64,000 nucleotides of DNA, taken from NCBI GenBank assembly GCA_000091205.1, contig AP006487.2; one strand, written 5' to 3'. How positions within the stretch are numbered: the first letter of the stretch is position 1; every line of letters starts with the position of its first letter. The position numbers were made by a program, and so were the translations under genes. The DNA comes from Cyanidioschyzon merolae (lineage: Eukaryota). Below the pieces are notes generated by a model. The model saw only the letters and a list, made by a program, of their open reading frames with translations, was not told where the DNA came from and searched no databases. This document shows, one piece after another, positions 1-50,751 of this stretch.

Positions 1-4
1 GCAG

Positions 5-653: not shown

Positions 654-688
<35 letters not shown>

Positions 689-2623: not shown

Positions 2624-2842
2624 GGGAGACCGATTTTCACAGGTTTCTGTTCTCTCTGGCAGCGGCCGTAGCAGCAGCAACAACAACAGCAGCAGCGTAT
2701 GAAGGCAGGCGGTGCGGCAAGCGGTGCGTATCTGCGATAACGCGACTGTGGGGCGCGAGCACAGACCACCCCCGAGCGTGTCGCCCCAGGTCGGCGTCGA
2801 GCGAGCGCATGTCGATACCGCTTCCATCCGTACCACGAGTTT

Positions 2843-7023: not shown

Positions 7024-7214
7024 AAGGGCACTCTATGGAGTACGCCTAAAATACCAACCTGTCGTTGCCGCAAGCTCCGGGTTTGTGGTTTCCCGCCACC
7101 AGTTCAACAACTCGCTGCAGCAGTTGCTGGTGGACGTGCTAGAGGCACTGACCACGCAGCGGGTCGATGACGTACAACGCGCGTGGTTTTCTGTTTTGGC
7201 AGAACGTTGATCTG

Positions 7215-8560
7215 GACCATGGATACTAGATCCTGGGATGGATATTGCTGTTCGGGAAAGCGTCCATTAGTCTTCACTCTACCTCCGAATTCCATGACCC
7301 ATACTTCCCCTCGGATGTACTGGTCGTTTCGTACGTTCCATTGTGCACCGAGCGCATGCGATGGGCGTCTACGCTAGCGAATGTACTGCTGGGGCGGATG
7401 CAGCACGGACAGAGAACGGCTTGGCCATGCCATTCAGGCCGTCCACTCGAGGCGCAGTGCCTAGGGCGCGGAGTAGGAACTCATCCTCAACCTGGGAGCC
7501 AGCAAGCTGCGCAGACAGACCTACTGCCCGTGACAGTGCGGAGCGATTTGCTCGGATGATCCGGCGACCGGTGGAATACCTGGATGTAGCCTAATCACGA
7601 CTAGTCCAGGAAGAAAGTGCCTCGCGGGCGAGTTGCTCAGGTCGCAACCCCTGTATCCGCCGCGGGAGGCAGCACGAAGCACTTGCCTGGCACACTCGTC
7701 CGGCTCGTGGGACGCTCCACCTGGAAGGTAAACTTGCAGGAATGTGGAAAATTTTGCCCCCTTTTACCGTTTCTCGTCCAGGGGAAAGAAACTGTTATCG
7801 AGTTGCTCGGTAGTGGGTATTTTCTGTCTTTCGGCACAGTTGCAACGAGTAAGCGGTTACTTTCTGGTCTTAGCACCTCGGATGCCTCGTCGAATCATTG
7901 AAGACCTGTCCTGGACGTCCGGCGATGTCCTCGTACTGGACAACATGGCGTTTCACCGTTGCCCTTAAGTTCGAGCAGCAGCTTCTTATTCCTCCTCCGT
8001 GCACTCGTTTGTTGAACCGTATTGAAGGAGTGTTATCTTTCGGGAAATATCATGATCGCCCGAGTAAGCGAATCGCTGAAACGTTCAGTACACGATGACA
8101 CTAAGGCACATGTCGTCTTTTTTCCGCAAGTCCTTCGTCCTCCGGTAAGGTCCTAACCCAAGCGCATAAACAAGTGCGATCATTCCCAATAATAAAGCAT
8201 CCAAGGGATAAGCCAGAACAGACACTCCAGAAAGTCGAAAATGAGAGAAGCCAGCGGAGCGCTCCGGCGATAGAAACCCACAGAGAGCTGACAGAGCAGT
8301 AAATGGCACAGAAGAAACCAGTCCGAGGAATCTCTGGTTTGGCGAGATCAACCAGAAGTAAAATACATATAGAGTTCGTGAACCGCGACTCCAACGCCGC
8401 CATCAATATCACGAGATGTGCATTCCGAAACGCGACACCTGTGAAGCTCACACGAGCGAACTTTGCGGGACACCCCCCTGAGGATCCAAATGAACACGGA
8501 TAAACTGAAACCGATAACCGTCAACCAGGCAAAAAACGACCGCGATGCATCCGCGCCCCC
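7215..8560 (+). mobile_element. Degraded, internally deleted copy (E1) of a Fanzor/TnpB-like element. Consists of the ~600-bp family-specific 5-prime repeat (repeat C, 7215-7800) plus the C-terminal RuvC-II/RuvC-III remnant.
   Basis: 7215-7800 aligns with 24690-25270 (for example tggtcgtttcgtacgttcc, gcaagctgcgcagacag, cccccttttac blocks). 8100-8503 encodes a remnant homologous to the C-terminus of the 27026-27706 ORF (KVRGLVAFV...RDFNAAVYI vs PVRGISGLA...RDSNAAINI). The 3-prime tail motif ctgaaaccgata... is shared with the other copies. Confidence 0.6.
8303..8503 (+). pseudogene. TnpB/Fanzor-like RuvC-III C-terminal fragment (part of E1)
   Basis: Translation ...IHIEFVNRDSNAAINITRCAFRNATPVKLTRANFAGHP matches the TnpB-family RuvC-III signature (RD-x-NAA-x-NI) and the equivalent region of the larger copies at 27480-27700 and 44843-45151. 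Confidence 0.6.
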
Positions 8561-11687: not shown

Positions 11688-14600
11688 CGCCCACGCGATA
11701 AGTTGTTCTGCAAACTGAGCATCACAACCCAAGACGGAGGAGAATTCTAAACCGTACCGATTTCCGACGGGCTCTGCACGCAACGCAACGCAACGCATCA
11801 CGTCATGAGTATGCGGCATCGCCTCATACGTCGGACGCGTTGTGCACGACTTCCCGATCGATGTTCAAGTGGTATTCGCTGTCGCGAGTGCATTCGGCCA
11901 CTGCCGTGGGTACTCAGACCGATCGATATGCTTTTCTGCAAGCGTCGCTGCTACCGCAGCCATCCTGGCTAGTCGCTCACGAGACACCGCGACGGCATTA
12001 GCGAACGTCCGCAACGCCGGCGTCCAGTGTTCAGGGGTTGTATGCCAAGCGTGTGCCGGCACCAGCGGTATTCCCGAGATGACTGCTTATCGTAGCACTA
12101 TGCAGATCTATCGACTTGAGCGTGGTCAACTCCGCGTCTAGCGTACGCGCTCTTCCACGCACTGCACAAAACGCACCCAAGCATTTCATGCTCGTGAAGC
12201 AGCGCTTCCTATAGCATCAGGTGACGCTGGTGTATGTGAGCAGCCCTGCACGCTGCGCATGGCATGGCAAAGGCGCGTGGCACGCACACGGGACACGTAG
12301 GTTGTGATGCGTGTCTTTCGGCGACACGCACGCACGCACGCATCCGGCGATGCATGAATGATGAGCGTGCCTGCGCAATCGGCGTTAGACAGGCAATTGG
12401 GCGCAGCTCGTGTCGTGTACGGCATCATGGACGAGAGCGAGGTGTTTTCCCTGTATTGGGCGTGTTTACTATCAAGGTGAACGTTTATACACACAGAGGA
12501 GAATCGCTGGTTTGGTGCTGTAGGCGCCTATGCTATGGTTTGTGCTGCTGTTTGAAGCGCGCGGCTCGTTCGCAGCGCAGTTTCTCGGGGTTCGCGCAAC
12601 GGTGCACCCTGCGTCTAGGCGTTGACTAGAGCGTCGAGGTTCCTCAGCGCATCGCTTCGCGTCGTCGCGGCAATTCGTTCAGCCGCGCGACACGCTGGTT
12701 CCCAAGGACTGACAGCGAGTCGCGACCCCGCAAACGGTCGACGACGCCTCAAGTCGACGCTCGTGGCGTCACTGCAAAGCTTTCCTGACTCTGTGGGGTA
12801 ACCGCAGCGGCAGCGCACCTGACAGAGCAGCAAGCATTTTTGGGGTATGCTCCGCATCCAGAGGTTCGCTGGATCGATTCGGCCTAATTTGCTTCCAGAA
12901 ACACCACAAGGGGACCGGGCCACGCAGAAGCGTATCTGGAGCAATCAGGGCCTCTTCCCTGGTATTTCGTTCAGTTGGCGCTTGCGGGACCTCTGGTTAC
13001 AGAACATCACTCGTACATCGTTAGAATACTGCGTGCACCTCGGGGGCTCTGAGTAAGATTTCCCTGTTCTGCTTGAAAGAAATCAAAATCTTGCGCAGCA
13101 TCCTGGGGCCATTCGCTGTCGCCCCGCCCCGTGTCGCATGATGGATGCATTATCCACGATACTGGATCATGGTACATCGATATCGTTCGCCATTTGACCT
13201 GGAAAATCTTTCCTGGTGTATATTCACAGCGCTTCAGCGTCGCAGCGTTACTGGAACGTATCGTATGAGTGCCGTGTCCCCGGTGGATTCCAATGCCCTT
13301 TCGCATGACCATTGCATGTTTCTATCGCAAGTCTTCCGCATTTCAGCAAAACGACCAAACTCCGTGGGAAACGAATCGCCCGAAAGCTCGCTCCTTATCA
13401 AGCTGCTGGACGCTCCGGAAGCATGACACGATTCCATAGGCTGATAGAGACATTCCAGTCTCGGTGCGGAGAGCGCGTGGGTTCATGGTCGCTTGTAGAG
13501 TCACACCATGGCACGCTTGTCACCCTCGATTGCCTGGTCAACTGACGTTCGCTTATCTTACAGTGAACCGTCTCATGCAAGCGGCTTTGTTGCATTCCGT
13601 TTTTATATACCTGTTTCAGCGGTAACACATGCACCCGGTGCCTGTATGTCATCTCGAACGCCTCGTTGAGAAGCATCCAGGATCGATATCTCGATCTCTC
13701 GTTTCACGCTCGTGTCGAACGAGCACGAGTGCAGCCCCTAAGCGCTAAAGCACACCCAGCACCATAGGCTACGAGCATCGAGCAACGCTCCGTGTCTGTC
13801 ATTTGCTTCCCCAACACATTGAAGTTGGCGAATGAGCGCGCCTTGCTTGTATACGACAGAGATCATTGGCAATGCCTGCACAATCCCGGATCAACCTGCC
13901 AACTGTCGCCCGCACGAGCGATTTGGACGCTGATCCACGGTGAAAATGAAGCACAGAGTGCATCCGCCGCTTTTCGGTGCGGTGCTCAGAGCGTCGACAT
14001 GGGTCCTGACGCCGTCCCTCTACTGTTCGATATACCTCTCGACGCCTATCATGATCGACGCTTGCAATCACCTGGCCCCGGAAAAGTCGACCAGTGCCAT
14101 CTAATTTCCATTCAGGCAACTGGCTCATCCCCTTTTGCTAGAGAGGTGCGTCGACGGTCATGACGCCCATCAATCCGGGATCCACGTCCACCGCGAAGTC
14201 GTTCTCATTGTCGGCCTGGGACCGTAGAAAAACGAGTCTCATTGCTTGACGCAGGCCTCGATTTAACAAAGTGCATGGAGACAGATATTCCGTTGACCTC
14301 CAATGTCTGGGTAAACTTTATTCCATTCCATCTCTGTGAACACAGAACCATCGGCGAGAACCGCCACTGCTCTTCGAGAGGTCGTTCGAATGCTTCGAAG
14401 GTGCGCGCGAGTGCCACCCGTAGATCACTGACGTGGTCATATAGTACACACGTTCCAACTGTAATAGAATAGGCCATGATGTGACACGTGCAAACCACAA
14501 TGAATAGACGCTTGAGAAGGCCGGGGCGCTCTGATGCGGGCAGCGAGCCTTGTTTGCGCTGGACGGCGCCGTCCAGGAGCACGAAGAAACGCAAGATGCG

Positions 14601-16255
14601 AGGAAAGCAGCCATCACCTCCCAACACTGCGTCAGATACGATGTTCTTCGGTCCGAGGCAGAGAGAAACGACATGAGCTCGAGTGATTTCAAGCGGCGCT
14701 CGCTCTCGTTGCCATGCCTCTTCCGAGCTCGCTACCGTTTCGATCTCTTCCGGCAATTGGTCGTCATTTTGCCACCATCGACATCAGATGACTACCCTCC
14801 ATCAGTCCCAGATTTTCTGGTTCAGTAAGGTGAACCTACAACGCTCATGAGGAGTGCCTCACGAGGCGCTCGATATTGACCAGCGTATAATTTGATTTTT
14901 GCTTGATAAAATGTCGGTATCGGTGCTGTAGATACCCCGATCGCGGACGCGTCGAGGTATGCAGAGAAGCGTGTGTCTGCGAATCTCTGACCCTACGAGC
15001 AGGCCGTACTTCATCTTCTGTTCAGAGCATTATTTGCGTCTCGGCATGAGGGTTTGATCTATAGACCTATGTACGAGAGGAAAAGGGACAGCGGGAAGCC
15101 CTGCGTCTGGATAACGTATGAACAGCTGCATGACGATGTGTGAGAAGGCGAGAGAGGCTAAGCGCGACGTCGTCGAAAAGTCACATGATTCCTGATGCCG
15201 TTCTGCATTCAACGGTTCTCTGAATGCGAACGACTCATCTATGGATCCGTGAGCATAGAGAAAGCGTTTGAAAACATACAAGAATCGGCCGTCTGGATGG
15301 AACCAGGGATATTCAGCTGGCACAAAGAGCAGATCAACGCATGTATCTGCTGCGTACTACTTGATCGCTTACGAGCCAGGAAGAACGACGGTTTCTCTGA
15401 GCAGGACATAGGTGCGTGAGACGGAGGAGCATGAATTCCTCCGACGAAGGATGAGGTGTTGAACGATTCTTCCCGTTTGTCGATAGTTAGGCGAACACAT
15501 GATTGAATCGCTTCTAGAGCTGATCCTGTTGTCGTTTTCGCATGTCTTCTCGTTACGAACACCCGTCGCTCCTGTCGTAAGTGTTAGCGTTTCCGTATGG
15601 AAACGTTCGTTTGCTGTTCAACGCGCAGCGCTCTCGAATAGAGGCGTGCTTTTCTTCCACGCGCACTCGCGTCGCTGCATCAGAGGTCACTTCAGCGGTC
15701 CGAAACCCTCGTACCCGACGGTTTCTTTGGTAATATTCGTAGAGAAGATATGAACTGGAATGGGTTGAGATGGAACCCCGGGTATAGCTTTAGGTAGATA
15801 AGTTCTGTTTAGGGTGCACGCTGCCCAGGTGAACGACAACGACAAAGGGGGTTCATCCACCTGCCTTCCATACGATGACTGACTAGTAGCGCTAAGCTCG
15901 GTATTCGCTAGCTATCAGTGACAGCACACAGTCTCCCCGCAACAGATCCCCTATCTGCCGAATTCATTGCTTTTGCTGGAGAGCTGTGAGAAAAGCACAC
16001 GGAAATCAGTACGGTGCCGTGGTACCAGAATCGCAGACTGTACTATTCGTTCTAAATATGTACATCATAGACATAGCCCGTCGAACCGTTCTGATTTTCA
16101 AATCCCTCGGCGCGGGCGGCCACGAAACACGCCAGTGCGTTGAGGCGGCGATACAGCGCCTCTTCGCGCAGTCTCGCCTTTCCACGGGTGCCGGTGGTCT
16201 GTTCGCGAAAACCTTCAGTTTGCAGCCGATTTCTAAAATTTAGGCTTCTGAACGA

Positions 16256-24253: not shown

Positions 24254-24689
24254 TGTCTGAGAGATTCTAATCTTTCTTTATGGTTCCGCACAGTCGCCAA
24301 TTCGCTTGCAGTATTTCGAATCGATACGCGTGGAGGTACTGAAAAGCAGTCGTATCTCAAAGCATCGTCCATATTTGGGTAACGCTGATACCTCTAAAGG
24401 TTCTAAAACCCGTGCTATCTCAAAACAAGGGACACGGCACGCCCGGCGCCTGTTCGTTCTTTGGACCCAATCAAGCATCGATACCAAAAGCAAGCCCTAT
24501 GTGGAGGCCACAAAAACGTAGAAGCATTTAGGTAGAAACTATAAACGCTCCCCTGGTATCTGGAACCCTTGCGGTATCCAGCGCGTCACATATGGCACGC
24601 TGTACGAATGCACGCCGCCCTGACCCTGCCATGCATCGACAGCAGCAGCGCGGGCGTGATTTTACTTCGATCACAAAATTCGTTTCCAG

Positions 24690-27600
24690 GGGCCATGGAT
24701 CCCAGATTGCGCGATGGGCAATGGCTCTGGGGAAAGTCTCCACGATGATGCATCCACGGCCAAGTTCCATTGCTTATACTTCCTTTCGGATGCACTGGTC
24801 GTTTCGTACGTTCTGTTGTGTGCCGAGTATCTGCCTTGATGCACCAGCAATAGCGCTTATATCCCTGGTAAGGATACAGCGCGAAGACAGAGCGGATTCT
24901 TCATACTACTGACGGCGTCGAATCGAGGAATGCTACATTTATTGACAGGGAGTCACGGCAAATTATCATTCTGGGAGTCTGCAAGCTGCGCAGACAGCAT
25001 TCTGCCTGTGGCAGCGCGAAGCGATATACTAGGAGTCCACTGCCACTAGTGCGACGTCCAGACGCAGCCTGATTGCCCCTAGTCCCAGAACAGACTGCGT
25101 TGCGGACGAGCTACGCAGATCTCTCTAAAGCACCAGCCAGTTTCGAGGCACACCGAGCACCAGCCCGGCAAACTCGTCCGGCGCGCTGCACTGTTCACCT
25201 AGAAGAAAAACTTTCGACAACATAGAATCCTTTTCCCCCTTTTAATGTTTATCACAGAGGGAGAGAAGGAATTGTAATCTCGTAAGTGGATCATAGTGAT
25301 TCTCTGTTCTTTGTTCTAAATAGTGCGGTTGATACTCGCATCTGGGAGATCTGGCCGTCACGAGGCACGACGCGCATCTCGCCGTTGAAGGGAAACACGT
25401 TTCTGATCAATACCGTGTTGCTCTAATGTACAAGTTATATTTGGGTTAAAATCATAGCGAATTATAGTCTTTCAATTCAATTCTATTTCAATTCTCAGGG
25501 GAGTGTATTCAAGTGATTTTTCGCGGTGTATATTAGAAGCTTTCAAAGAGTCTTCTTTTTCAAAAAATTAAAGAAGGAAAGATATAGAAAGGAAAGTAGA
25601 GGATCCCGGCGGGCCGTTTTCTCCGGCTGTCGGAAAGAAACGGAACGCAGTGCCAAGCAAAGAGGAACACGACAGGACGAAGAAGCGAAAGAAGGATGCC
25701 AGACGTCAAAAGCTGCGAGCAAGTCGACAGTACGACGAGATAGGAGCCAAAGCCCTTCTTCTACGCCGCAGCAAGGATCCCTAAAGCAAATAACGCATGA
25801 GGTCATCAAAAAAACGTGTCGCGTCTTACGCTATGAGTATTATAAAGGCTTCTTCAGGACTGATGCATTGTCGAAGATGTACGACAACGTGACGGAAATT
25901 CGAAGAGTCGAGGTTCCGGCAGAGTTTATCAACAGGACCTTTATTCGCCTCCTGATGGTTGGCACAGGGGAAACGCCGAGGAGAAATGAGCGAGAGCATG
26001 TCCTCCACGAAAATCACAAGGAATACCGCTTCAACGGTACTCGGCACAGGGACGGCGCGGATATCTACACATACGGTGTGAAAAGTACCTCACGAACCTG
26101 AAGAACCATTTCATAATGAGCCTCAAACGCTTCGTGATACGCGCCGTCTTTGCACTCTACCCGGGTATCTCTCGCAGAGGCAGACGGGCCAGCATCGATG
26201 GCATCACGAACGACAGCAGGAGTGAACGGGAGATCGAATTCGTCCACGAGGAGACTTCAAACCGGAGTATGAATGAAGCTTCCGTGGCCCGTGCGGCTAT
26301 GCAAGAGCACCGTGCGGTCTTAGGGCTTGTCAACCCAGCGGAAAAGATATCAGATATGAAAAAGGATGGAAAAGGTGCGATTCCCTCATCCTGCGTTATT
26401 TCGTGTCCCTGAACCGAGAGCGCGAACGCAAGGCCGATATGGCGCCGGCCCTAAAAAATCGAGAGTCGGACAAACGGAAGGCTTTCCTACGAGAGAGGCG
26501 CTTCAACGTTGTTCGGATTTGCGGGATCAAGTCGGATTTCGTGACCATCAACTCCAGCGTCCTCTACTGGATCATGAGGAAGATCAGTATAGAGTTCTGT
26601 GTAAGCAACAAGGAATTCATCGGCGAGAGCCGGGAAACGTATTGGAAGAATATCCTCGATCTGAAGCGTCTCAAAACGAGCATGCGAGGGGTATCCGCGG
26701 GGATCGTCGAAACCGATAGGGTATCCATAGGTGTTCACTGACGGCGCTTGAGGGCGGATCGCCCGGTTCCATCTTCGTTGTCACCCGTGACGGAGCATGA
26801 AGGAAAGAAGGAGGCGGATCCTGCGACGCCGGCGGTGCAGGAGAACGACCGTGTCGTTGGCACGGACCGCGGAAATACGAATACCATAATCATCGCAGTA
26901 CCCAAGCCTGGGGAAGATGGTATTGACGGCAACTTATGCGAGAAAGACACGCGACTTTTGGAGTTCGCGAGAGCGAGCTATGACCGAGAATCCGGTATAA
27001 TGAATGCCAGGAAGAAAATTGAGACATGGAATGCAGGAGTCAAGGAAGAGCTGGAAGCGATCAGCCAGGTGCCTATCCGCGGAGCGGACTTTCGAGATTT
27101 TCGGGAGCTCGTGAAAATTCGCGTTGCTCATTGCGAGGATCTGTGCAAGGGGTTTGCAAAGTACCGGCTTGGTGGGCTCGTCACCACACGAACTTGTACT
27201 GTGGGGAGCAGTGTCTATTCGCGAGCTTTTCCAACCAGCTGGGCGCCCTCAAGGAAGACGATAGTCAAAGGCTCGTAACAGCGTGTGAAGCAGAGCGCTG
27301 GGCGCCAAAACAAAAGGAGTGTACGCCCGCTCCGTCGCCACGAGCGTACAAGGAGTACGCACGGCGTTTTGTTACGATACATGTAGATGAGTTCCGAACT
27401 TCATACATACAATACGAGTTGGGGTGTCCGCTCCAGAGGGACGAGATGGAAAAGTGCCATCGACGCTCTGAGGATATAGAAAAGTACGGACCGCTGACGG
27501 AAGAGCGAATGGAAAGGAGGGCGAAAGTTCGAGGACTAGTCGCATTCGTAAGTAGAAACAGAGGCGAGAAAGGTGTGGAGTGTGCGAACCGAGACTTTAA

Positions 27601-27800
27601 TGCCGCTGTGTATATCAGGAGATGCGCAGTGCCGGAGAAGAGACCCGAGGAGTCGACGAGGGCCAACTTTGTGGGGCACCCCTATTCCCCCTCCGCCCCG
27701 AGGTGAAATTGCACGCGAATACGTTGAAACCAGCAGTAGGTGGCCAGTCAAGGAAAACGGGTAGGCGTCTGCACGCCGGTGCGTGGACATCCAGCCTACG
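24690..27800 (+). mobile_element. Most complete copy (E2) of the Fanzor/TnpB-like element: ~600-bp 5-prime repeat C, fragmented nuclease gene, and conserved 3-prime tail
   Basis: 24690-25270 matches 7215-7800. 25640-27665 is about 95% identical to the inverted copy at 47040-44975. The 3-prime tail (27690-27790, ...ttgaaaccagcagtaggtggccagtcaaggaaaacgg...) aligns with the tails of the other three copies. Confidence 0.65.
25526..27706 (+). pseudogene. Fanzor/TnpB-like RNA-guided-nuclease-family gene (RuvC-I, RuvC-II, degenerate zinc finger, RuvC-III). Either interrupted by several frame changes and one in-frame stop, or contains unannotated introns.
   Basis: Ordered ORF pieces in frames 2,1,0,0,2. 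Basic Lys/Arg/Ser-rich N-terminal segment (NLS-like). RuvC-I-like RVVGTDRGNTNTIIIAV (~26850). RuvC-II-like FVTIHVDEFRTSY (~27385). RuvC-III RDFNAAVYIRRCAVP (~27590). A frameshift near 27680 moves the conserved tail EVKLHANTLKPAVGG...RRLHAG into another frame (ORF 27622-27900). Confidence 0.6.
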
Positions 27801-27969
27801 GCCGGGCGGCGCGCTGCCCGCCACCACTGCACACCAGAAGCGCAGCGTTTGCCGCCTGGAAGAGAGTCGTTGCTGCCGGTGTTCCTCTAGTCGAGTTTAA
27901 GAGTTTGGACCGGTCGTTCCTGTAAATCTCGATGAGATTGGGATTTTAAACGGGTGGTCATCACCGCTT

Positions 27970-31397: not shown

Positions 31398-31611
31398 ATG
31401 GCGAGCACTTCGACCATGTCAGGCAGCCGACGGAAGGAATTTACTGATGAGGATCGGGAGGAGTTCCAAGAAGCATTCAACCTGTTCGATCGCGACGGTG
31501 ATGGCCTCATCTCAGCGAGCGAGCTTGGCTCAGTGCTTCGCTCGCTCGGACAGACTCCAACTGAGGCTGAGATCCAGGCTCTCATAGCCGAGGCGGACTC
31601 GGATGGTAAAG
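31398..31611 (+). CDS. Calmodulin-like EF-hand protein, exon 1 (EF-hands 1-2)
   Basis: ATG at 31398. ...[51 protein letters not shown]. The exon ends in phase 1 at a GTAAGT donor at 31612. Confidence 0.8.
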
Positions 31612-31761
31612 GTAAGTGTCAGGGTACAAGAGCGGTCTTCAAAGCAGACGGGATTTATTGACGCGTGTACGAGAAACCTTGCTTTTTTCCGTCAAGCAGA
31701 AACTAACCAAGGGGCCTGGTGGAGTTCAAAAAACCCATGTGTTCGTCCCTATGAACTGCAG

Positions 31762-32042
31762 GTTCTGTAAACTTTGAAGAGTTCCTCGCGCTAATGACAC
31801 AGCACGCGAAGGATCCAGCTGAGACTGAGGAGGCACTGAGACAAGCGTTTCGTGTGTTTGACCGCGACGGGGACGGCACCATCAGCACCAGTGACTTGCG
31901 CTACTTTATGGTTACTTTAGGTGAAAAGCTCTCCGAGGACGAGGCCGATGAAATGATCCGTATGCTCGATGAAGACGGCGATGGTCGCGTCCAATGGGAA
32001 GATTTTGCTCGGCTGCTTAAAAGCAGTGTCAATACTCAGTAA
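31762..32042 (+). CDS. Calmodulin-like EF-hand protein, exon 2 (EF-hands 2-4)
   Basis: The CAG acceptor ends at 31761. The splice restores GSVNFEEFLALMTQHAKDPAETEEALRQAFRVFDRDGDGTISTSDLRYFMVTLGEKLSEDEADEMIRMLDEDGDGRVQWEDFARLL. Intron 31612-31761 (150 nt) has ACTAAC about 45 nt upstream of the acceptor. Stop at 32040-32042. Confidence 0.8.
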
Positions 32043-35000
32043 TACCGAATCACGGAACACCATTATCGTACCCCAACTGCACATGAAAAGCCTTCCCTGT
32101 GTATGTGAAGCGCACGAATCATGCTGGATTGCTGCCGCGTGTCACACTAGTGCCATATCTCTTGGAAACGGATTCTTTCCATCGACATTCTTCAACGTTT
32201 CAGCACAACGCATGCACTGAGAACTAAACGATGCCCTCGCATGTTTGCCAGAAACAAAACTGCTAGAGGCTTCTGGTGCACGAGACATTTCCGGATTTCG
32301 ACCGAGGCGCTCGACTCTCGGTGCGGGAGTGCTTGTGTGCATTGTTGCGGGTGGAATCACGAAATCGTTGGCCGCTCACCTTTGACTGCGCCGCCATCGT
32401 ACGAGCGGTCATCTTAATCTGCACCATCTCGTGCATCCGGCTCTGCTTCATACTCTTCGTCTCTGCCAGTTTCAACGCGCACCAGTGCTCGTGATGCATC
32501 TATGTCGTCCTGAACGCATCGATCGGAGTCGAACACGACCGATGCCTGGTCTCGTTGTACGATCTCGTCGAGTGAGCAGGAATGTCGCGATTGCGCGCTG
32601 TGGAACGTCTAGCGCCACAGAGCACCAAAGAAACGACACGACTTGCAGTCATTTCATATTCCAGCTCATAAAAATGAATCGGGGAATGCACGTTTCTTGC
32701 GTTCGCTGGACGGCAACCGCTGGCGGCCCCAGCGCGAGTCATTCGAAGACTCACGTGCTCGCCAAGCGCACAAAGCATTCCGCTTTGCTCACTATGGTGA
32801 CCAGAGCAACGATACTGGTTTTGACGCGGTCATCCCAGTTGTTCGTATGCTTCCTGAGGTGCATCATGCCTGGCGCCGGGTCCAACCTAGCTTTCGAAAA
32901 GTTGAACGGATGCGTTCGCTTTCCGTTCGCGTTCTTCGACTGCGTCCTCTTGATTTAACGGGACGGCGACGGCCACGAAGCCCTTGAAACCGTGATAAAC
33001 GTTTATGACGACTTTTTTCTCTTTATATACCTTGAACGGCTGAAAATGAGTCTCGTTACCCGACACAGGCTTGGGTTTCAAAACAAAAGCTGGTTGATAT
33101 TCTCCATCGTCCTTCATCAGCTCTATGAGCCTCTGTCCATTCCGTCCCTGTAAACGGGGAATCTTCAGCAATATCCGCCAGTGCTCGTCGCAAACTTTTG
33201 CCCATGCTTTGTACTTGCTCACGAAGGACAACTCTTTCTTCTTCTCCTCTACTTGACCTGTTGGCATGCATGTGGTCACTATGCTCTATACCAGTCTTTT
33301 CTTCCAAGGGATCTAGACGCGCGAGGTGGATACCATGACAGGAACTCGCCCAACTTATTTATGTAAGAGTCGACTACACTTCAAGTACCTTTGGGCACCG
33401 TCTCCTCCGTGAGCAAGCCCATGTAAAGGAGCCGTCGCTCTGCTCCATCCAGCGGACGAGCAGAGAAGCAACAGTCATCCGGGGCTGGTTTGAGTTCGAG
33501 AACGACTGGTTGGAGAACAGATTCACATATACGAGACAAGCAACTAGTGATTCTTATGTGTGGAAGTGACTTATGGAAACGGAGACGACGCCTTCGACAG
33601 ACTGAACCATTCGAACGGGTTGGTAAGCAGAGCAACTCAACGCCGATTTCAACCGCGTGTTCCTCGACTGCTTCTGAGTGACGGATAGCGGCTCTGTCCA
33701 AGAGCAGGAGAAGGGAATTGCCGAACGAGATGCTCCAAGCATTGCGTCTCACGAAGCATGGGGTTTCAATGACCCTGTCCGTTTTACGAGCCGTTGGCGA
33801 CTCTACAAATGAATACCTATACGCGTTACGAATCTCGGAATGCTCGATTGTCTCTTCTCTATGACCAGTGATTTGCCCTTCTTGGAGATGCCATATACAC
33901 GTCCACTATTCTTCCTGAATAGGGTCTCACCGAATGAGACGAATACCCGCCTCTCGTGTAGTGAGCGTTCGTATTCCAGTGCGAGATCGATCGGGTGTGT
34001 GTTGTGAGGCACGCGACGGTCTCGCCTAGAAGTGTGCGTTCCTCTTTGTTCGTCCGTGTTTCTTCGTCACCGTTCGTATCAGCAGTATGGAAAGTTCATG
34101 TTGCGTGGGTTGTTTGATAGCCTTTCATGGACGACATAGAGGGTGGAAAAGATTGACGGGGCTAGGTTCGAGCTGATAGCGTTTGATCGACTTTGGTCTG
34201 GACGCACAACGTTCCGAATATTGTCTACGAGACGGGTGATTCGTCCACTTGCTGACCGTTGAATGACTGACTCAAAGTATGGTCGTTCTTCGCAGACTAA
34301 AATTCACAGCATCAAATCTTTCCGTGATGTTTCTCCAACCCACAAAACGCAATATGTTTGAGTACCTATGGAGCAAACAACCAAAAGGCAAAACAGTGCG
34401 TGCTGGTGCATGTGTGCCGAAAAATTCACTGCTCAGCCTGATACTGCGCTCTCGGCCAGGCACACGGACTGCAGCGCTCGATGACTCCGGCCTTTGGAAG
34501 ACGATGCGTATCACATGCAGACGACGCTGAGCATTTCGCGAACTGCTGCCCGCATGGGTCCTTTTCTAGTGGAACAGTTCATTTTCGAGCATGGCGAATA
34601 TAGCAGTTTTCTCTCTGAAAAAGTATCATGGCTTTTATGTCTATGATACAGCGGAACTGACCGACATCTGCGTCGCGGCTTAAATAAAACTGATTCAACG
34701 CTACTGTTGTTCCTGAAAAAGGCAACGCTACACCTACCTGCATTTTTTGTTTTCTTAGCGCCCGTGCGCGCCTGTATCCTCCATCTGAGCAACTGAGGCG
34801 GCGACCCTGTCCCGCGCGCGCAGGACTCGCCCGGTCTTACTCTAGAGCAGTTGCGCTTTCCAGTGCTACCACAAAAGCAGCACAACGGAGCGAAGGACAG
34901 CTGGCCGCTCTTCATTCTCTTATGCTACAACTCCTTCGTCCTCTCGATCGATTCGGATGCCGTGAGTCGGAAAATCAATTTGCAAATTCGTTGCCCGAGG

Positions 35001-36567
35001 GCGCCGCAAACTCTGCCCCTCGAGTGAGTCGAACACCGATGCTGTGAAACGTTACGTCCTCAACCGTTCTCCATGGGCACGCGCGCGGTTCGAACCAGCG
35101 TCTGGCGCGTTTGCTCGCGATGCCCGTTCTCCAGTAGGGCCAGCATTAGAAGACGCCACGACTAGACGGGCTCCAGACTCAAGCTTCTTGAGCGCTTACA
35201 TAAAGCCAGCGTGCACAGAGGCTCCGAGAAGCGTTGGCATCTCTCCATGGCGTTTGCGACGACGCATCCGGCCGTGCAGTAAGCGCCTGCGATCGTTCGG
35301 CGCATGGAGCATCTCCGGATTCATCATGCCAAGTTTCGAAGTCGAATGCTGCGCTGGATATCCCGAAGCGTCGAAGCATCCGTGGACTGACTGAGGCCTC
35401 TTCTCTTCCTCTTGAGATCGTCCACGAATACTGAACAGTATAGTTGTATCCGTCATTCCAACTAAGTCATGAGATGGATATTGCGCACCAGGAAAATAAG
35501 GGAAAAGTGCTCGTGGTCTACGCAACCAGCATACTGGAGTTGGGGTGCAGACGAAGCCCGCGGGCAGTATCTTTACAAACAGCACGGCGAACCAGCGACA
35601 TCCTTCCGAACGAATGAGCGCGGGTGCTTGTACACCACGGCGATGTTGAACGCTCTGCGCCCTGTTACAGACCCGCACCTGTTTCATGGAAGAGTACCTG
35701 GATCATACTCCTACTCACGCATGATTTTACGTATGTAGGATGTAACCTTATTTACACGAACAACGGGATACCGACTAAGCGATGATTATCTACATTTAGG
35801 AAAACCTTCCGCAGTTCGCACGAGATCTCCGAGGTCCACCTGCAACCAACATCCGCACCCCCATTCGAAGATCATAGCAGAATCAAGCTACCCTCCGGGT
35901 GTCGAGCTTGCCATAACCATCCTATAGGCTTTAAGCTCAATTGTATTCCATCTCCAGGTGAATGGAATCCGACGCTTTTTCGCGGTTTCTAGCAGAAGTG
36001 TTCGACGTGCGTCTATGATCAAAGAAAAAACTCCACGAGAGAGGCAAGGACATGGAAGCCGGGCATCATGGGAGGCCTTGATCGCCAGCTGCCGGACAAG
36101 GAAAGAGACATGCCCTTCTTGCCGACTATCGAGCGAAGAAGAGCAAGTAACGAAGAAGCACAGGGCAGGCAGGAATGCGTCTGCTGTTCATCGCGAAACA
36201 GCGTTCGATTACGCGCTCCCTGGGGTGGAACACAATTGGGGTGAAAGGTGGGAAAGCGCGACGTGTCGGTACGTTTCCGATAGCGGCGGCGGTGCGGTAA
36301 CGACGTGCCGCTGTGCGATGTACACGTGTACACGTCGCGAAACGGCTATCGTTTCCGTTCCGGGCGCGCGAAACAATACTTGTGTAGCTTCAGTTCGAAA
36401 GCTTGGAATGTTTGTATGCGCTTTTGAACATGATTGTTCCATCATGAAGTTATTAGCTCTAGCGGGTAAAATGTCTCTGTAGAGCTTTCGCTTGCCCGTG
36501 AAAAGCAACCCATTTGAAGCGGTTTGGTGCGAAGGCAGTAACGTTGAACTGACAGCCTTGGCGTGTC

Positions 36568-41114: not shown

Positions 41115-42300
41115 CAGATTAACATGGAACACTGAACTGCATGATCTGTGGCTGCATTTCGATTTTTTACGAAGCTTTTTAAGATGTCTAGCCTCGATAT
41201 CCGGAGTGCAGTGATGCGGGCTCACGGTTCCATGCATAGATTCAGGATTCTCGGTAGTGTTTTCGGAGTGACTCCCTCCGCTCTTTGAAGCTGGAATTCG
41301 GTACTTTATCGGAATTAAGATGATTCGTGACGCCATCGATCAGCGGTTCATAGAATAACAGATGCCAATATCGAGTCTATACGTACGAGCGTCCACGCTT
41401 CCCCTTTCGTTACGTGTAGCGTGCCCAGGTCACGCATGCTTCAAGTCTTCGATCGCTCGGTTTCACGGCAACTCATGGGCGCAGCGATCCGTGCCGTTCA
41501 ACAGACGATGTGGAAGATTCGCCTTAGTCAGTTGACGACCTGTTCAGAAGCTCATGCCGGGAGTTCCCTGGACTTTTCGCACCAAATGATGAAAGGACTG
41601 TTCGGAAAACGAATCCTATGCTCTCTGTGGATATCCACGCAGAGGCATCCCATTGCAGCACGATACCTCCCGCATGATACGCTCCATGCGGCTCCACAGT
41701 CTTCCGTCTACATCGGAAGGGGTCTTGGAGTCGGGCTCGAGCCATTGCTGCGATCGTTTCGAATAGTGCATATGTCACCGGAGTGCACTAGCGGAGCGTT
41801 GAAGGATAGAAACTTCTCGTCCTCTTCTCTGTCCTGGATTCTCCTAGTGGTACTTGTTTCATCATGGTCGACATCGCGTTCCACAAAGACTCGATCGAAC
41901 GTGACGCAGAGCGCTTTCGAGTGCAGCGTCCAGACTGCTCGCTGAGGGCATCGACCCAAAGAAACCCGTGATCATCGGATACGACACGAGGCGCAGAAAC
42001 AAAGCATGGCATCAAGGCGAGCCACCTGTACCCGGACTGGGCATGTACCGAGCGTTACAGCAAGTGCTCAAGCGCCGCAGTAAAGTCCCCATAGGAGGAG
42101 TCTGGGTATTATTTCGTAACACTTGACCGCAGCCAAGTGTTACCGGCGCGAAGGGCTCGCCGCAGCTGTGGAGAAGTAAGATGAGCATGGCAAGCGAACC
42201 GTTGATCGCCCTTGCATCTTTGCACGGAATACGTCGATGACAGCCTGAGGCAGTGAAATCGGGACTCAGACGCCGCCACCAACAGTGCTCAACTCCAAAC
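41115..42300. repeat. Repeat family B, copy B1 (~1.2 kb). It is one arm of an inverted pair with 51080-52268.
   Basis: Near-identical to the reverse complement of 51080-52268 (174-aa ORF identical except 2 residues; 98/112-aa ORFs identical for the first ~70 residues). Boundaries found where the two alignments break down (~41115 vs ~52268; ~42300 vs ~51080). Confidence 0.7.
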
Positions 42301-44799: not shown

Positions 44800-47250
44800 T
44801 GCCTATGATTTTTCCAGTTCAGTGGAAAAGAATATCCCAAGATCATATACGGTAAATTAGTCCGCACCCGCATACTCTTACCCGCCTTTCTCGACCTGAC
44901 CCTTCAATCGGTTTCAGGTGCTCGCTGTATACTTCGATTTTGAGAGGTTGCCAAACGATGATGGCTCGTGTCAGCTGCTCGGGTCTCTTCTCCGGCACTG
45001 CGCATCTCCTGATATACATAGCGGCATTAAAGTCTCGGTTCGCACACTCCACACCTTTCTCGCCTCTGTTTCTACTTACGAATGCGACTAGTCCTCGAAC
45101 TTTCGCCCTCCTTTCCATTCGCTCTTCCGTCAGCGGTCCGTACTTTTCCATATCCTCAGAGCGTCAATGGCACTTTTCCATCTCGTCCCTCTGGAGCGGA
45201 CACCCCAACTCGTATTGTATGCATGAAGTTCGGAACTTATCTACATGTATCGTAACAAAACGCCGTGCGTACTCCTTGTACGCTCGTGGCGACGGAGCGG
45301 GCGTACACTCCTTTTGTTTTGGCGCCCAGCGCTCTGCTTCACACGCTGTTACGAGCCTTTGACTATCGTCTTCCTTGAGGGCGCCCAACTGGTTGGAAAA
45401 GCTCGCGAATAGACACTGCTCCCCACAGTACAAGTTCGTGTGGTGACGAGCCCACCAAGCCGGTACTTTGGAAACCCCTTGCACAGATCCTCGTAATGAG
45501 CAACGCGAATTTTCACGAGCTCCCGAAAATCTCGAAAGTCCGCTCCGCGGATACGCACCTGGCTGATCGCTTCCAGCTCTTCCTTGACTCCTGCATTCCA
45601 TGTCTCAATTTTCTTCCTGGCATTCATTATACCGGATTCTCGGTCATAGCTCGCTCTCGCGAACTCCAAAAGTCGCGTGTCTTTCTCGCATAAGTTGCCG
45701 TCAATACCATCTTCCCCAGGCTTGGGTACTGCGATGATTATGGTATTCGTATTTCCGCGGTCCGTGCCAACGACACGGTCGTTCTCCTGCACCGCCGGCG
45801 TCGCAGGATCCGCCTTCTTCTTTCCTTCATGCTCCGTCACGGGTGACAACGAAGATGGAACCGGGCGATCCGTCCTCAGGCGCCGTCAGTGAACACCTAT
45901 GGATACCCTATCGGTTTCGACGATCCCCGCGGATACCCCTCGCATGCTCGTTTTGAGACGCTTCAGATCGAGGATATTCTTCCAATACGTTTCCCGGCTC
46001 TCGCCGATGAATTCCTTGTTGCTTACACAGAACTCTAGACTGATCTTCCTCATGATCCAGTAGAGGACGCTGGAGTTGATGGTCACGAAATCCGACTTGA
46101 TCCCGCAAATCCAAACAACGTTGAAGCGCTTCTCTCGTAGGAAAGCCTTCCGTTTGTCCGACTCTCGATTTTTTAGGGCCGGCGCCATATCGGCCTTGCG
46201 TTCGCGCTCTCGGTTCAGGAACACGAAATAACGCAGGATGAGGGAATCGCACCTTTTCCATCCTTTTTCATATCTGATATCTTTTCCGCTGGGTTGACAA
46301 GCCCTAAGACCGCACGGTGCTCTTGCATAGCCGCACGGGCCACGGAAGCTTCATTCATACTCCGGTTTGAAGTCTCCTCGTGGACGAATTCGATCTCCCG
46401 TTCACTCCTGCTGTCGTTCGTGATGCCATCGATGCTGGCCCGTCTGCCTCTGCGAGAGATACCCGGGTAGAGTGCAAAGACGGCGCGTATCATGAAGCGT
46501 TTGAGGCTCATTATGAAATGGTTCTTCAGGTTCGTGAGGTACTTTTCACCCCGTATGTGTAGATATCCGCGCCGTCCCTGTGCCGAGTACCGTTGAAGCG
46601 GTATTCCTTGTGATTTTCGTGGAGGACATGCACTCGCTCATTTCTCCTCGGCGTTTCCCCTGTGCCAACCATCAGGAGGCGAATAAAGGTCCTGTTGATA
46701 AACTCTGCCGGAACCTCGACTCTTCGAATTTCCGTCACGTTGTCGTACATCTTCGACAATGCATCAGTCCTGAAGAAGCCTTTATAATACTCATAGCGTA
46801 AGACGCGACACGTTTTTTTTTGATGACCTCATGCGTTATTTGCTTTAGGGATCCTTGCTGCGGCGTAGAAGAAGGGCTTTGGCTCCTATCTCGTCGTACT
46901 GTCGACTTGCTCGCAGCTTTTGACGTCTGGCATCCTTCTTTCGCTTCTTCGTCCTGTCGTGTTCCTCTTTGCTTGGCACTGCGTTCCGTTTTTCGTCGGA
47001 AACCGCGACACCAGGCCCTCAGCATCATCGACTTGCAGCCCCATATCTTTCCTTTAGATTTTTCTTTCTTCACAATCAACGCACTTCGAACGTGCCTGCT
47101 GTAAACCACGATAAAGAATTTGATTACAACCATCTGCGCGTAGAACACGGTTGACTTGGAAAACTATCAGGTTCCGGGTAGTCGCTTCGCGCACGGCAGT
47201 GGCAAACGCTCGTCTGCGATTTGCGAGCTCTGCAGACTCGTTTTGACATG
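44800..47250 (-). mobile_element. Inverted copy (E3) of the Fanzor/TnpB-like element. About 95% identical to E2 over ~2 kb, with more disablements and a truncated 5-prime repeat C remnant.
   Basis: ORF series 46735-47148, 46215-46511, 45886-46224, 45349-45849, 45164-45601, 44843-45151 (all minus) mirrors the E2 ORF series. Extra lesions: CGA->TGA stop at ~45168, homopolymer A7->A9 frameshift at ~46807. 47160-47250 aligns (reverse complement) with the repeat C segment tcgcttcgcgc...gtctgcgcagcttgcagactc. The C-terminal tail QPLKIEVYSEHLKPIEG is intact here. Confidence 0.65.
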
Positions 47251-48071: not shown

Positions 48072-49055
48072 CTACCCGGTCGTTTCTTTGTTTTGCCCTG
48101 AAACGGCTTGCTCTCTTTTCCGTAGCTCTTCCTCCGCCTCTTGAGCTTTTCGTGCTAGCTCGTCGGCAATGCGCGCGCGCTCCCGTGCCTCCAGTTCTTT
48201 GAACATAACCTCTGCTTGGGTGAGCTTCTCCATACTCATTTGATATGTTCCAATATCCTGATCGAGCCGTGCGTACGAGATTTTGAGCATATTGGCCCAT
48301 TTTTTCACAGATTCGAGATTGATTTCCACTCCACATGAACTCATGATTTTCATCAAACCTATACCAAATAACCGTGTGTAGTAATATTCACCATCTGCCC
48401 GACGACATGCGCGGAGCGCTGCGATGACTGGTTGCGCTTCGGCACTGTCTTCCCCGGTATCTCGCTCGATCTCCTCTATGAGCTCTGCCTCTGTCTTGCC
48501 CTGCACATATGCCAAAGCGTCGTCAGCTTCCTTGGTGACTTGGCCCACGTCAAGATCCAGCGCATCGCAAATGCACCGGAAGAGGCTCTCTCGCTCGTCC
48601 GGTCGCGGATACGAGCGGAAAAAATCGCGATATACGGATACAAAACCGAGCGCGAAGATGACGTCGTATCGAAACATGGCACAAACGAGCGCGAGATGAG
48701 CAGTTGTCAGAATCTCGTCCACAGCCTGCTGGTAATAGAATACCACAGGACGTTTTAGATTCCGATAGAAACGGGTCACGGTCTCGCTGACGGTGCGCAC
48801 AGGTTTTCCTCGAAAAGGTGCGAACTTTCTAGCAAAGTCTGTGTCAGCTGGCTCTGTGATGAGACCGAGAGCTTCTATGTCTTTTCTGAACTCATCTAAA
48901 CCCGCGAAGCGCGGTTCATCGCCAGTGCCCGCACAGAGCACTTGCCGACTTGTCCGAGAACCCTTCGCGTGAATACCAGCACCCCGCAAACCCGACTTGG
49001 AGAGCTTCCCATAAGCACTCCTGGGTAAACTAAAGCTAAAGGCTGCAGTGAACAT
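48072..49055 (-). CDS. THF1: Thylakoid formation protein Thf1/Psb29 with an N-terminal organelle-targeting presequence
   Basis: YDVIFALGFVSVYRDFFRSYPRPDERESLFRCICDALDLD...YYYTRLFGIGLMKIM...INLESVKKWANMLKISYARLDQDIGTYQMSMEKLTQAEVMFKELEARERAR matches Thf1/Psb29 along its length. ATG at 49055 gives MFTAAFSFSLPRSAYG... (Phe-rich, hydroxylated, basic: plastid-transit-like). Confidence 0.85.
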   Translation of the reverse strand: MFTAAFSFSLPRSAYGKLSKSGLRGAGIHAKGSRTSRQVLCAGTGDEPRFAGLDEFRKDIEALGLITEPADTDFARKFAPFRGKPVRTVSETVTRFYRNLKRPVVFYYQQAVDEILTTAHLALVCAMFRYDVIFALGFVSVYRDFFRSYPRPDERESLFRCICDALDLDVGQVTKEADDALAYVQGKTEAELIEEIERDTGEDSAEAQPVIAALRACRRADGEYYYTRLFGIGLMKIMSSCGVEINLESVKKWANMLKISYARLDQDIGTYQMSMEKLTQAEVMFKELEARERARIADELARKAQEAEEELRKREQAVSGQNKETTG

Positions 49056-49208
49056 GGGGTAAAAGTGTACGCAGAGTGAACCACACTGTGTCACCCTGTT
49101 TGCAGCCCTCTGACAAGAAGCTGCTTCTCGCTCTAGGCCTCTATGATTCGCAAACCCGCGTACCACATCAGTTCACATCGATTGAGGCGCTGCAGGGCAT
49201 CGAATGGA

Positions 49209-50680: not shown

Positions 50681-50751
50681 TGCGCTAGCCGGGAATCGAA
50701 CCCGGGGCAACTGCTTGGAAGGCAATTATGTTACCATTACACCACTAGCGC
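50681..50751 (-). tRNA. tRNA-Gly (anticodon UCC)
   Basis: The reverse complement folds as a canonical cloverleaf: acceptor GCGCTAG/CTAGCGC + discriminator A; D-arm GTGT/ACAT with AATGGTA loop; anticodon stem ATTGC/GCAGT with loop CTTCCAA (anticodon TCC, U33, A37); T-arm CCGGG-TTCGATT-CCCGG. No encoded CCA, as expected for eukaryotes. Confidence 0.85.

Follow-up and report, generated by a model that had tools for sequence, protein, structure and literature searches.

Two copies of a broken nuclease gene, E2 and E3, lie 17.3 kb apart and in inverted orientation in a 64,000-nucleotide stretch of Cyanidioschyzon merolae DNA (contig AP006487.2), referred to below as the window. How did two copies come to be broken at the same places? 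According to the original prediction, the shared breaks might be unannotated spliceosomal introns, or might have been inherited from a dead copy that was mobilised in trans or copied segmentally.

Two Decayed Copies of a Known Repeat

E2 and E3 are broken members of CMe-1A, a repeat already described in 2007 and 2013. The host is that of the family: the Psb29 ORF at 48072–49166 is 100% identical to the C. merolae 10D protein at NCBI. When the 3169-bp CMe-1A consensus (PMC3627910, Additional file 2) is compared with the window by blastn, E2 aligns with consensus positions 1–3087 over 24668–27775 (79.8% identity), and a local alignment carries it on to consensus 3154 at 27850. E3 aligns with consensus 787–3025 over 47167–44928 (79.5%), and its 3′ end can be extended to consensus 3084 at 44870. 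Nucleotide homology of ~80% to the consensus thus assigns both copies to CMe-1A. The 5′ 636 nt of E2 correspond to the element TE-N2_CMe (PMC3627910); a separate copy of this 5′ part of CMe-1A is found at 7197–7831.

CMe-1A comprises ~150 copies that are ~80% identical to the consensus, some with intact ORFs; it lacks terminal inverted repeats, and the CMe-1 protein is listed as 734 aa in one exon (Bao and Jurka 2013, Mob DNA 4:12; PMC3627910). E2 encodes the CMe-1 Fanzor1 as a broken ORF. In a frameshift-aware alignment the 734-aa protein is collinear with E2 over aa 1–731, interrupted by six frameshifts, loss of the start codon, and stop codons, namely TAA and TGA, which both lie after the first frameshift and before the second, and the TGA at 26739. 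The earlier report concerns a C. merolae “novel interspersed repetitive element” of 253 copies with a mean length of 3.2 kb, which makes up ~5% of the genome, is transcribed, and has a truncated ORF weakly similar to WSV486 of WSSV (Nozaki et al. 2007, BMC Biol 5:28; PMC1955436). Bao and Jurka list a Fanzor1 from WSSV (PMC3627910).

Fanzor1 Homology

A family profile built from 100 sequences matches Fanzor1 structures in the PDB, those of Parasitella parasitica (9cf0, E=9e-23), Spizellomyces punctatus (8gkh, 1.7e-15), and Guillardia theta (9cer, 4e-9); a shallow profile of 11 sequences gave no match to the PDB. The RuvC-I DPGR, RuvC-II DEFRT, and RuvC-III NRD motifs of the characterised Fanzor1 nucleases align with the CMe-1 family profile. 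No usable match was obtained for the six ORF pieces and intact relatives in a copy of Pfam that does not include PF26935/DUF8286, and NCBIfam returned only a marginal guided_TnpB match (E=0.016) at the C-terminus of P0039. An AlphaFold2 model of P0039 from 44 sequences had a mean pLDDT of 44 and was left unused. An Rfam scan of the window detected a single tRNA and nothing else.

All three codons of the catalytic triad are present in E2 (26865, 27389, and 27593), and E3 has a Glu-to-Lys change at 45238. The state of the triad makes no difference, as an intact protein can be translated from neither ORF.

A zinc finger that looked degenerate had been taken as a sign of inactivity. This argument fails, since HHELGC...EKC is likewise what the intact 734-aa consensus and every intact relative contain. 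In the consensus and these relatives the stretch reads TSYTHHELGC...EKCQ, with two His, two Cys, and zero CxxC pairs. The C4 zinc finger that Bao and Jurka place after the [TS][TS] motif and before RD is absent from the CMe-1 family. The degenerate-looking finger is a trait of the whole CMe-1 lineage and not a lesion of E2.

Shared and Private Lesions

The E2 nuclease ORF is indeed split into the pieces first recognised (25526–26101, 26116–26412, 26403–26741, 26748–27278, and 27026–27706), with an in-frame TGA at 26739–26741. E3 has every one of the E2 frame breaks originally listed, plus some that had been overlooked. The first ~98 codons lie outside the long ORF 25526–26101, in another frame, and contain three further E2 lesions that had been missed: ATG→ATA at 25584, a 1-nt deletion at 25783 creating TAA, and a 4-nt deletion at 25869. 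Sizes of the shared indels (−1, −4, −1, −1, and +5 nt; Table 1) were scored by DNA alignment against the intact relatives L005 and L006 and the published consensus. Intact relatives are single ORFs of 586–752 aa. At the 5-nt insertion, tblastn passes from aa 584 to aa 585 uninterrupted, with 5 nt between the HSPs.

Table 1. Positions of E2, E3, the probable conversion tract, and individual lesions and motifs in the window
Feature	Position	Strand	Details
E2	24668–27850	+	Full-length decayed CMe-1A copy; consensus 1 to ~3154 of 3169
E3	44870–47167	−	CMe-1A copy without first 786 consensus nt; consensus 787 to ~3084
Gene-conversion tract, E2 side	25638–27650	+	2013 bp, 98.9% to E3; probable donor
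Gene-conversion tract, E3 side	44977–46991	−	2015 bp; probable recipient
Start codon lost, private to E2	25584–25586	+	ATG→ATA; beyond tract; alignment with consensus, L005, L006
Shared lesion 1	25782–25784	+	1-nt deletion, TACAAG→TA-AAG, makes TAA and frameshift; E3 ~46846
A-run	25808–25814	+	A7 in E2, A9 in E3 (46813–46821), A8 in L010, A6 in intact relatives
Shared lesion 2	25869–25870	+	4-nt deletion, frameshift; E3 ~46758; protein alignment unbroken across
Shared lesion 3	26081–26082	+	1-nt deletion, frameshift; E3 ~46546
Shared lesion 4	26367–26368	+	1-nt deletion, frameshift; E3 ~46260
Shared lesion 5	26739–26741	+	In-frame TGA for conserved Tyr (TAT in consensus); E3 45886–45888
RuvC-I Asp codon	26865–26867	+	GAC kept in E2, motif VVGTDRGNTN; aligns to DPGR of Fanzor1 structures via family profile
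Shared lesion 6	27163–27167	+	5-nt insertion, frameshift; E3 45460–45464
RuvC-II Glu codon	27389–27391	+	GAG kept in E2, VDEFRTS
Non-canonical “zinc finger” stretch	27413–27463	+	YELGC...EKCH in E2; HHELGC...EKCQ in intact consensus
RuvC-III Asp codon	27593–27595	+	NRDFNAA, kept in E2 and E3
Insertion private to E2	27682–27695	+	14 nt, C-terminal tail; beyond tract
Stop private to E3	45164–45166	−	CGA→TGA at CpG; derived, recent; equals E2 codon 27461–27463
RuvC-II catalytic Glu loss, private to E3	45236–45238	−	GAG→AAG; derived, recent

Each copy also has lesions of its own. E3 retains the family ATG, at 47042–47044; outside the near-identical tract it has lost 1 nt close to codon 13 (~47007). 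The two private E3 lesions that had been predicted both exist, though at 45164–45166 and 46813–46821 and not at ~45168 and ~46807. At the stop site, C is the base in L010 (an independent contig described below) and also in the consensus, L005, and L006. The second lesion had been read as a slip from A7 to A9. The difference in length is real, but A8 in L010 and A6 in the intact relatives favour neither direction of change; for the same reason A9 of E3 was not accepted as the ancestral state. Relative to A6, A9 is +3 and frame-neutral, and A7 is +1.

The two copies have drifted neutrally by ~1% since the copying, with 9 derived changes in E2 and 10 in E3. Their dN/dS, proposed at the outset as a test for pseudogenes, is 1.45 and does not differ from 1 (p=0.78). 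There are 3 synonymous and 15–17 nonsynonymous substitutions, and the data reject omega values up to 0.3 (p<0.005); among intact relatives, which served as the control, dN/dS is 0.29–0.38. Purifying selection was thus not detected on the supposedly exonic pieces of E2 and E3. Decay of the RIP type or driven by CpG was considered and set aside: the 20 core substitutions, with 14 transitions and 3 changes at CpG, show nothing unusual.

A Near-Identical Tract within Diverged Homology

In blastn, E2 25638–27681 matches E3 46991–44946 in inverted orientation at 98.4% over 2046 bp. Within the core of this match (1993 of 2015 positions identical) there are 20 substitutions and one homopolymer difference. 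Outside it, only 107/178 positions agree on the 5′ side (60.1%) and 81/140 on the 3′ side (57.9%), the stretches compared being the 175 nt adjoining the core on the 5′ side and only 117–140 nt on the 3′ side. Two copies that are each ~80% identical to the consensus would be expected to share ~60–64%, and the flanks come close to that value. A core of 98.9% against homologous flanks of 58–60% is a likeness far beyond chance.

Both flanks are CMe-1A in E2 and in E3, collinear and in register. High identity breaks off at consensus 962 toward the 5′ end of the element, ~970 nt in from that end, and at consensus 2976 toward the 3′ end, ~200 nt before it is reached. What is seen, then, is a sharp block of near-identity within diverged, collinear homology, the pattern expected of gene conversion. 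The partners were distinct and already in place: consensus 1–786 is present in E2 only, and the private lesions beyond the tract differ.

The Shared Breaks in an Independent Contig

L010, a contig from another metagenome project that is 99.3% identical over 7 kb, spans the E3 orthologue of another strain. All the shared lesions recur in it, with the tract edges unchanged, and the private TGA and the Glu-to-Lys change of E3 are absent. Because this independent contig carries the same lesions, sequencing error is ruled out as their source. No E3 allele in the unconverted state turned up; L010, the one spanning contig found, is already converted, which places the event before the two strains separated. 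Three sites (26134, 26407, and 27239) are at odds with a single clean event and later divergence, and point either to additional exchange or to L010 being a chimera of short-read assembly. For E2, no contig on record encodes the ORF 27026–27706, and the orthologue from another strain (L004) is covered only from 27505 onward.

Origin of the Shared Breaks

The shared breaks very probably arose through one ectopic gene-conversion event between two old, independently decayed CMe-1A copies. A CMe-1A sequence would first have gained five frameshifting indels and a stop codon. Some 2.0 kb of this dead copy would then have replaced the homologous part of the other by non-allelic conversion, after which both copies would have drifted neutrally by ~1%, E3 acquiring its second stop and losing the catalytic glutamate. 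Every break would be shared because the ~2-kb sequence was already dead when conversion copied it, and neither an intron nor transposition is needed. That the mechanism was gene conversion, and not some other homology-dependent replacement, is suggested by the mosaic pattern.

The direction of transfer was most likely from E2 into E3, as the 5′ flank indicates. E2 is uniformly 80–81% identical to the consensus (80.4% in its far 5′ part, 81.2% in the 5′ flank, and 80.5% in the core), whereas E3 rises from 69.4% in the 5′ flank to 80.4% in the tract. In the 3′ flank the copies are about equally distant from the consensus (62–63%). The source could also have been a third CMe-1A copy elsewhere, the comparison having covered the copies in this window, out of ~150–250 in the genome.

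It is very unlikely that, instead, an active Fanzor or transposase acting in trans moved an already-dead, non-autonomous CMe-1A copy into the E3 site. In favour of this reading, the lesions are older than the duplication, CMe-1A exists in many copies of which some are reported to have intact ORFs (PMC3627910), and there are intact relatives under purifying selection. A transposed copy, however, would be expected to remain ~99% identical to its termini and then to give way to unrelated DNA. Here the near-identity stops inside the element at both edges and at neither terminus, and past those edges the two copies continue as CMe-1A in register at 58–60% mutual identity.

Even less likely is a non-homologous segmental duplication of the 2-kb E2 piece to the position of E3. 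The tract edges are sharp and do not coincide with the ends of the element, as such an event would allow, but the E3 flanks are CMe-1A collinear with the consensus and include the family start codon. Random insertion in exact register within an old copy amounts to homologous replacement. The suggestion of a dead copy mobilised in trans or copied segmentally was therefore right in placing the lesions before the copying and wrong in both mechanisms, for which homologous replacement must be substituted.

It is highly improbable that the frameshifts or the near-identity are artefacts of assembly or sequencing, such as homopolymer errors or homogenisation of repeats in polishing. In favour of an artefact, every frame shift is in one direction (−1, or its equivalent +2). 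Yet the indel sizes include −4 and +5, most of the indels are not in long homopolymers, and the shared TGA is a substitution; the lesions and tract edges recur in L010, the source genome is 100% finished (PMC1955436), and neighbouring genes have long intact ORFs.

The idea that the shared breaks mark unannotated spliceosomal introns, the Fanzor gene being functional, can for practical purposes be dismissed. The genome does splice, as had been noted: a calmodulin-like gene has a 150-nt intron at 31612–31761 (GTAAGT...ACTAAC...CAG). Multi-exon Fanzor genes also occur in other eukaryotes, such as the CRe elements with 5–10 exons (PMC3627910). At four of the five breaks, though, bases are missing that the intact, intron-less relatives have, and at the fifth 5 nt are inserted; protein homology is unbroken at all of them, and none contains extra DNA bounded by splice signals. 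The sole GTAAGT in E2 (27548) lies downstream of all the shared lesions, within conserved codons; ACTAAC is absent, and zero sets of GTRAGT, branch site, and YAG span any lesion. The shared in-frame TGA and TAA would remain in any case, CMe-1 is published as one exon, introns occur in only 0.5% of C. merolae genes (PMC1955436), and the dN/dS of 1.45 also speaks against a functional gene. Programmed −1 frameshifting was considered as well, all shifts being in the same direction, and was rejected on the stop codons, the −4 and +5 indels, and the neutral dN/dS.

Implications and Comparison with Known Systems

The state of E2 and E3 is ordinary repeat decay of a known family, and a false lead, that of cryptic introns in a red-alga Fanzor gene, is removed. 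There is a small addition to what is known of the family: CMe-1A copies of C. merolae very probably exchange sequence by gene conversion. Copy-to-copy identity is therefore no safe transposition clock, and shared lesions in CMe-1A copies are no evidence for amplification of a dead master. This is relevant to dating Fanzor activity, or to reconstructing active CMe-1 sequences from genomic copies.

There is a slim chance that the conversion was not spontaneous but began with an RNA-guided double-strand break in or beside one copy, cut by a CMe-1 Fanzor1 still active elsewhere in the genome and repaired from the other copy. Homing-like retention has been shown for bacterial TnpB, and such a break would provide its eukaryotic counterpart. 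The run-wise mosaic of E2-like and E3-like sites in E3 of L010 would then reflect repeated rounds of exchange, and the process could help to explain intact ORFs in an old family that has diverged by ~20%.

Set beside the structurally solved Fanzor1 proteins, the CMe-1 family differs in that even its intact members have no CxxC...CxxC zinc ribbon, and E2 and E3, unlike the experimentally characterised nucleases, are unable to make a Fanzor1 protein. E2 agrees with the CMe-1A of Bao and Jurka (PMC3627910) in genome, family, ~80% identity to the consensus, and an ORF collinear with CMe-1; at the family level there are no differences, but their paper gives no description of exchange between copies. 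The element of Nozaki et al. (PMC1955436) matches E2 in size and ORF state, although its kinship to TnpB/Fanzor was not recognised there and relationships between copies were not analysed.

The closest parallels to the E2/E3 tract itself are of another kind, and E2 and E3 resemble them in having sharp, kilobase-scale near-identity within older, diverged homology, between inverted copies that lie near each other. Dispersed or inverted repeats are known to undergo ectopic gene conversion, as in yeast Ty elements and the palindrome arms of sex chromosomes. Unlike those cases, it is two pseudogenes that would have been homogenised here, and conversion would have spread lesions rather than preserved function.

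Shared lesions in E2 and E3

The original prediction, that E2 and its inverted counterpart E3 are broken at the same places, is confirmed, with corrections. The listed ORF pieces of E2 and its TGA at 26739 are present, and E3 is an inverted near-copy: a blastn self-comparison of the window pairs 25638–27681 with 46991–44946 at 98.4% over 2046 bp. Base-by-base alignment limits the near-identity to a core (25638–27650 versus 46991–44977) in which 20 bases are substituted and one homopolymer differs in length; the remaining 11 mismatches of the blastn match all fall in its final 31 nt, past the point where identity drops away. Both lesions claimed as private to E3 exist, at adjusted positions. 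The CGA-to-TGA change is at 45164–45166 rather than ~45168, and the A-run difference (A7 at 25808–25814 in E2, A9 in E3) is at 46813–46821 rather than ~46807. The first ~98 codons, which lie outside the long ORF 25526–26101 and in another frame, had been overlooked; they hold the first two indels and, at 25584, an ATG-to-ATA change of the start codon.

To call lesions, E2 and E3 were aligned at the DNA level with the published consensus of CMe-1A, the 3.2-kb repeat to which both copies are assigned below, and with L005 and L006, loci from two intact relatives. The protein alignment, by tblastn and by frameshift-aware dynamic programming, continues through each break.

Features of the window (cons, CMe-1A consensus position; P0039, the protein to which the relics are compared)
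Feature	Position	Strand	Remark
Shared lesion	E2 25783	+	-1 nt, TACAAG to TA-AAG, yields TAA
Shared lesion	E2 25869	+	-4 nt
Shared lesion	E2 26081	+	-1 nt
Shared lesion	E2 26367	+	-1 nt
Shared lesion	E2 26739	+	TGA replaces conserved Tyr
Shared lesion	E2 27163-27167	+	+5 nt
CMe-1A fragment	7197-7831		TE-N2_CMe-like 5′ unit, cons 4-636, 76%
CMe-1A fragment	8222-8475		3′ piece, cons 2751-3007
CMe-1A fragment	35923-36099		solo piece; begins at cons 786, same start as E3
CMe-1A fragment	55969-56055 + 56199-56393		copy with internal deletion
Decayed Fanzor1 relic, more distant lineage	13377-14892	-	26-39% aa identity to P0039 (both relics)
Decayed Fanzor1 relic, more distant lineage	32329-33234	-	26-39% aa identity to P0039 (both relics)

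The zinc finger had been described as degenerate and read as a sign of inactivity. The feature is indeed there, but every intact relative, like the intact consensus, reads TSYTHHELGC...EKCQ; it is not evidence against activity of E2. The broader family consensus has no CxxC pairs, and the non-canonical finger characterises the whole lineage, in which purifying selection maintains it.

A probable gene-conversion tract

Over the core (2013–2015 nt), E2 and E3 agree at 1993/2015 positions (98.9%). Identity is 60.1% (107/178) in the 175 nt directly 5′ and 57.9% (81/140) in the 117–140 nt directly 3′; both flanks are CMe-1A in both copies, in register with the consensus. Two independent copies, each ~80% identical to the consensus, should share ~60–64%. 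Outside the core, consensus positions 1–786 are present in E2 and absent from E3; the start codon in the 5′ flank is ATA in E2, which also has a 14-nt insertion at 27682, and is the family ATG (47042–47044) in E3, which has a 1-nt deletion near codon 13. The near-identical core, the diverged in-register flanks, and the different extents and private lesions beyond it are together characteristic of gene conversion overlying two old copies that had decayed separately. By this mechanism, which we infer from sequence comparison, an already broken ~2-kb stretch of one CMe-1A copy would have replaced the homologous part of the other.

Judged by one 175-nt flank, the tract seems to have originated in E2 and to have been brought into E3. 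Against the consensus, E2 is uniform (80–81% in its far 5′ part, 5′ flank, and core), whereas E3 jumps from 69% in the 5′ flank to 80% in the core. An unseen third CMe-1A copy may be the source instead.

The original suggestion that a dead copy was copied is right in outline, but the diverged in-register flanks point to homologous conversion rather than mobilisation. Transposition would have carried the ~99% identity all the way to the ends of the element, and the collapse of identity in the flanks makes it a very improbable origin of E3. Non-homologous duplication is slightly less credible still, as it predicts unrelated DNA beside the tract, and the E3 flanks are CMe-1A.

That the shared breaks are unannotated spliceosomal introns is refuted: introns insert DNA, yet at four of the five indel sites DNA has been lost. 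This genome does splice: a calmodulin-like gene (31416–32043, plus strand) has, as had been remarked, a real intron of 150 nt at 31612–31761 (GTAAGT...ACTAAC...CAG). In protein-to-genome alignment, however, homology runs unbroken across every frame break. The sole GTAAGT of E2 (27548) lies downstream of all shared lesions, within conserved codons; E2 contains no ACTAAC, and no donor/branch/acceptor set spans any of its lesions. The ORF of the CMe-1 family is single-exon (PMC3627910). Introns occur in only 0.5% of C. merolae genes (PMC1955436), and that of the calmodulin-like gene is among these rare ones.

Drift and possible continuing exchange

Three of the 20 core substitutions are synonymous and 17 nonsynonymous (the stop counted). 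The proposed dN/dS comparison of E2 with E3 gave the result of a pseudogene, a Nei–Gojobori ratio of 1.45, indistinguishable from 1 (p = 0.78); ω ≤0.3 is rejected, and values among intact relatives are 0.29–0.38. Polarised by the consensus and L005/L006, 9 derived changes fall in E2 and 10 in E3. Both copies are drifting.

A search with a 20-mer from the E3-private 5′ flank found four contigs in metagenomes, 99.3–99.7% identical and from the same species. One of them, L010, an E3 orthologue from another strain, covers the whole of E3. Sequencing error is excluded as the cause of the shared lesions because L010 shows all of them, along with identical tract edges. It lacks the E3 TGA and the Glu-to-Lys change at 45238, which marks both as recent, derived changes of E3 in the window. 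The A-run of L010 is A8. Along L010 4253–6297 (window 46991–44946), E2-like and E3-like states alternate in 7 runs over 20 sites, and at three sites L010 has a derived state in common with E2, where E3 of the window retains the base of the consensus, which contradicts a single clean event. This mosaic suggests either continuing exchange between E2 and E3 or a chimera made in assembling short reads of a 99% repeat.

Short-read contigs of this alga (L001–L004, L008, L009, and L011) stop 0–160 bp inside the tract. Assemblies break at this near-identical 2-kb repeat, and the shared core will therefore be under-represented or chimeric in metagenome-derived data.

Other repeats in the window

Six regions of the 64-kb window have protein-level similarity to Fanzor1: E2, E3, the two relics, which blastn with the CMe-1A consensus did not detect, and the CMe-1A pieces at 8129–8476 and 56138–56461. 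That starts recur at consensus 786/787 tentatively suggests a subfamily whose 5′ end differs, and not truncated copies.

A 1146-bp inverted repeat (41116–42261 and 51126–52271; 99.65% identity, sharp edges) encloses 8.9 kb of sequence, in which E3 and a tRNA gene (50681–50751, minus strand) are found. In metagenome contig L008, 38918–42261 is joined directly to 51125→46835, with the inner segment inverted relative to the window. In this arrangement E3 would run in the same direction as E2; it may reflect a genuine flip-flop inversion, or else an error in joining short reads across the repeat.

Relation to known elements

The concatenated conceptual translation retrieved 44 relatives, all from JGI metagenomes, several with uninterrupted ORFs of 586–752 aa at 50–57% identity. 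Direct family assignment of the ORF pieces and intact relatives gave no match in Pfam and a weak one to guided_TnpB in NCBIfam (E=0.016); a shallow profile matched nothing in the PDB, and an AlphaFold model (pLDDT 44) was too low in confidence for use. The family proved large in an exhaustive profile search, with 2008 clusters reaching E≤1e-3. When 100 diverse members were combined into a profile, it picked up the Fanzor1 structures solved for Parasitella (9cf0, E=9e-23), Spizellomyces (8gkh, E=1.7e-15), and Guillardia (9cer, E=4e-9), with the RuvC-I, II, and III motifs aligned.

CMe-1A is present in Cyanidioschyzon merolae in ~150 copies, each ~80% identical to a 3169-bp consensus; it is without TIRs, encodes a 734-aa Fanzor1 in one exon, and has its 5′ 635 bp in common with TE-N2_CMe (Bao & Jurka 2013, PMC3627910). 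An earlier record gives this 3.2-kb element 253 copies and describes its ORFs as truncated (Nozaki et al. 2007, PMC1955436). Against the consensus (Additional file 2 of Bao & Jurka, PMC3627910), E2 aligns over positions 1–3087 (24668–27775; 79.8%), extendable to position 3154 (27850), and E3 over positions 787–3025 (47167–44928; 79.5%). At the Psb29 ORF, the window and C. merolae 10D are 100% identical. Because the consensus aligns to both copies, Psb29 matches 10D, and the element was published in 2007 and 2013, E2 and E3 both represent a known repeat and lie in the very genome from which it was described. The element is already known, and its conversion is ordinary repeat biology.
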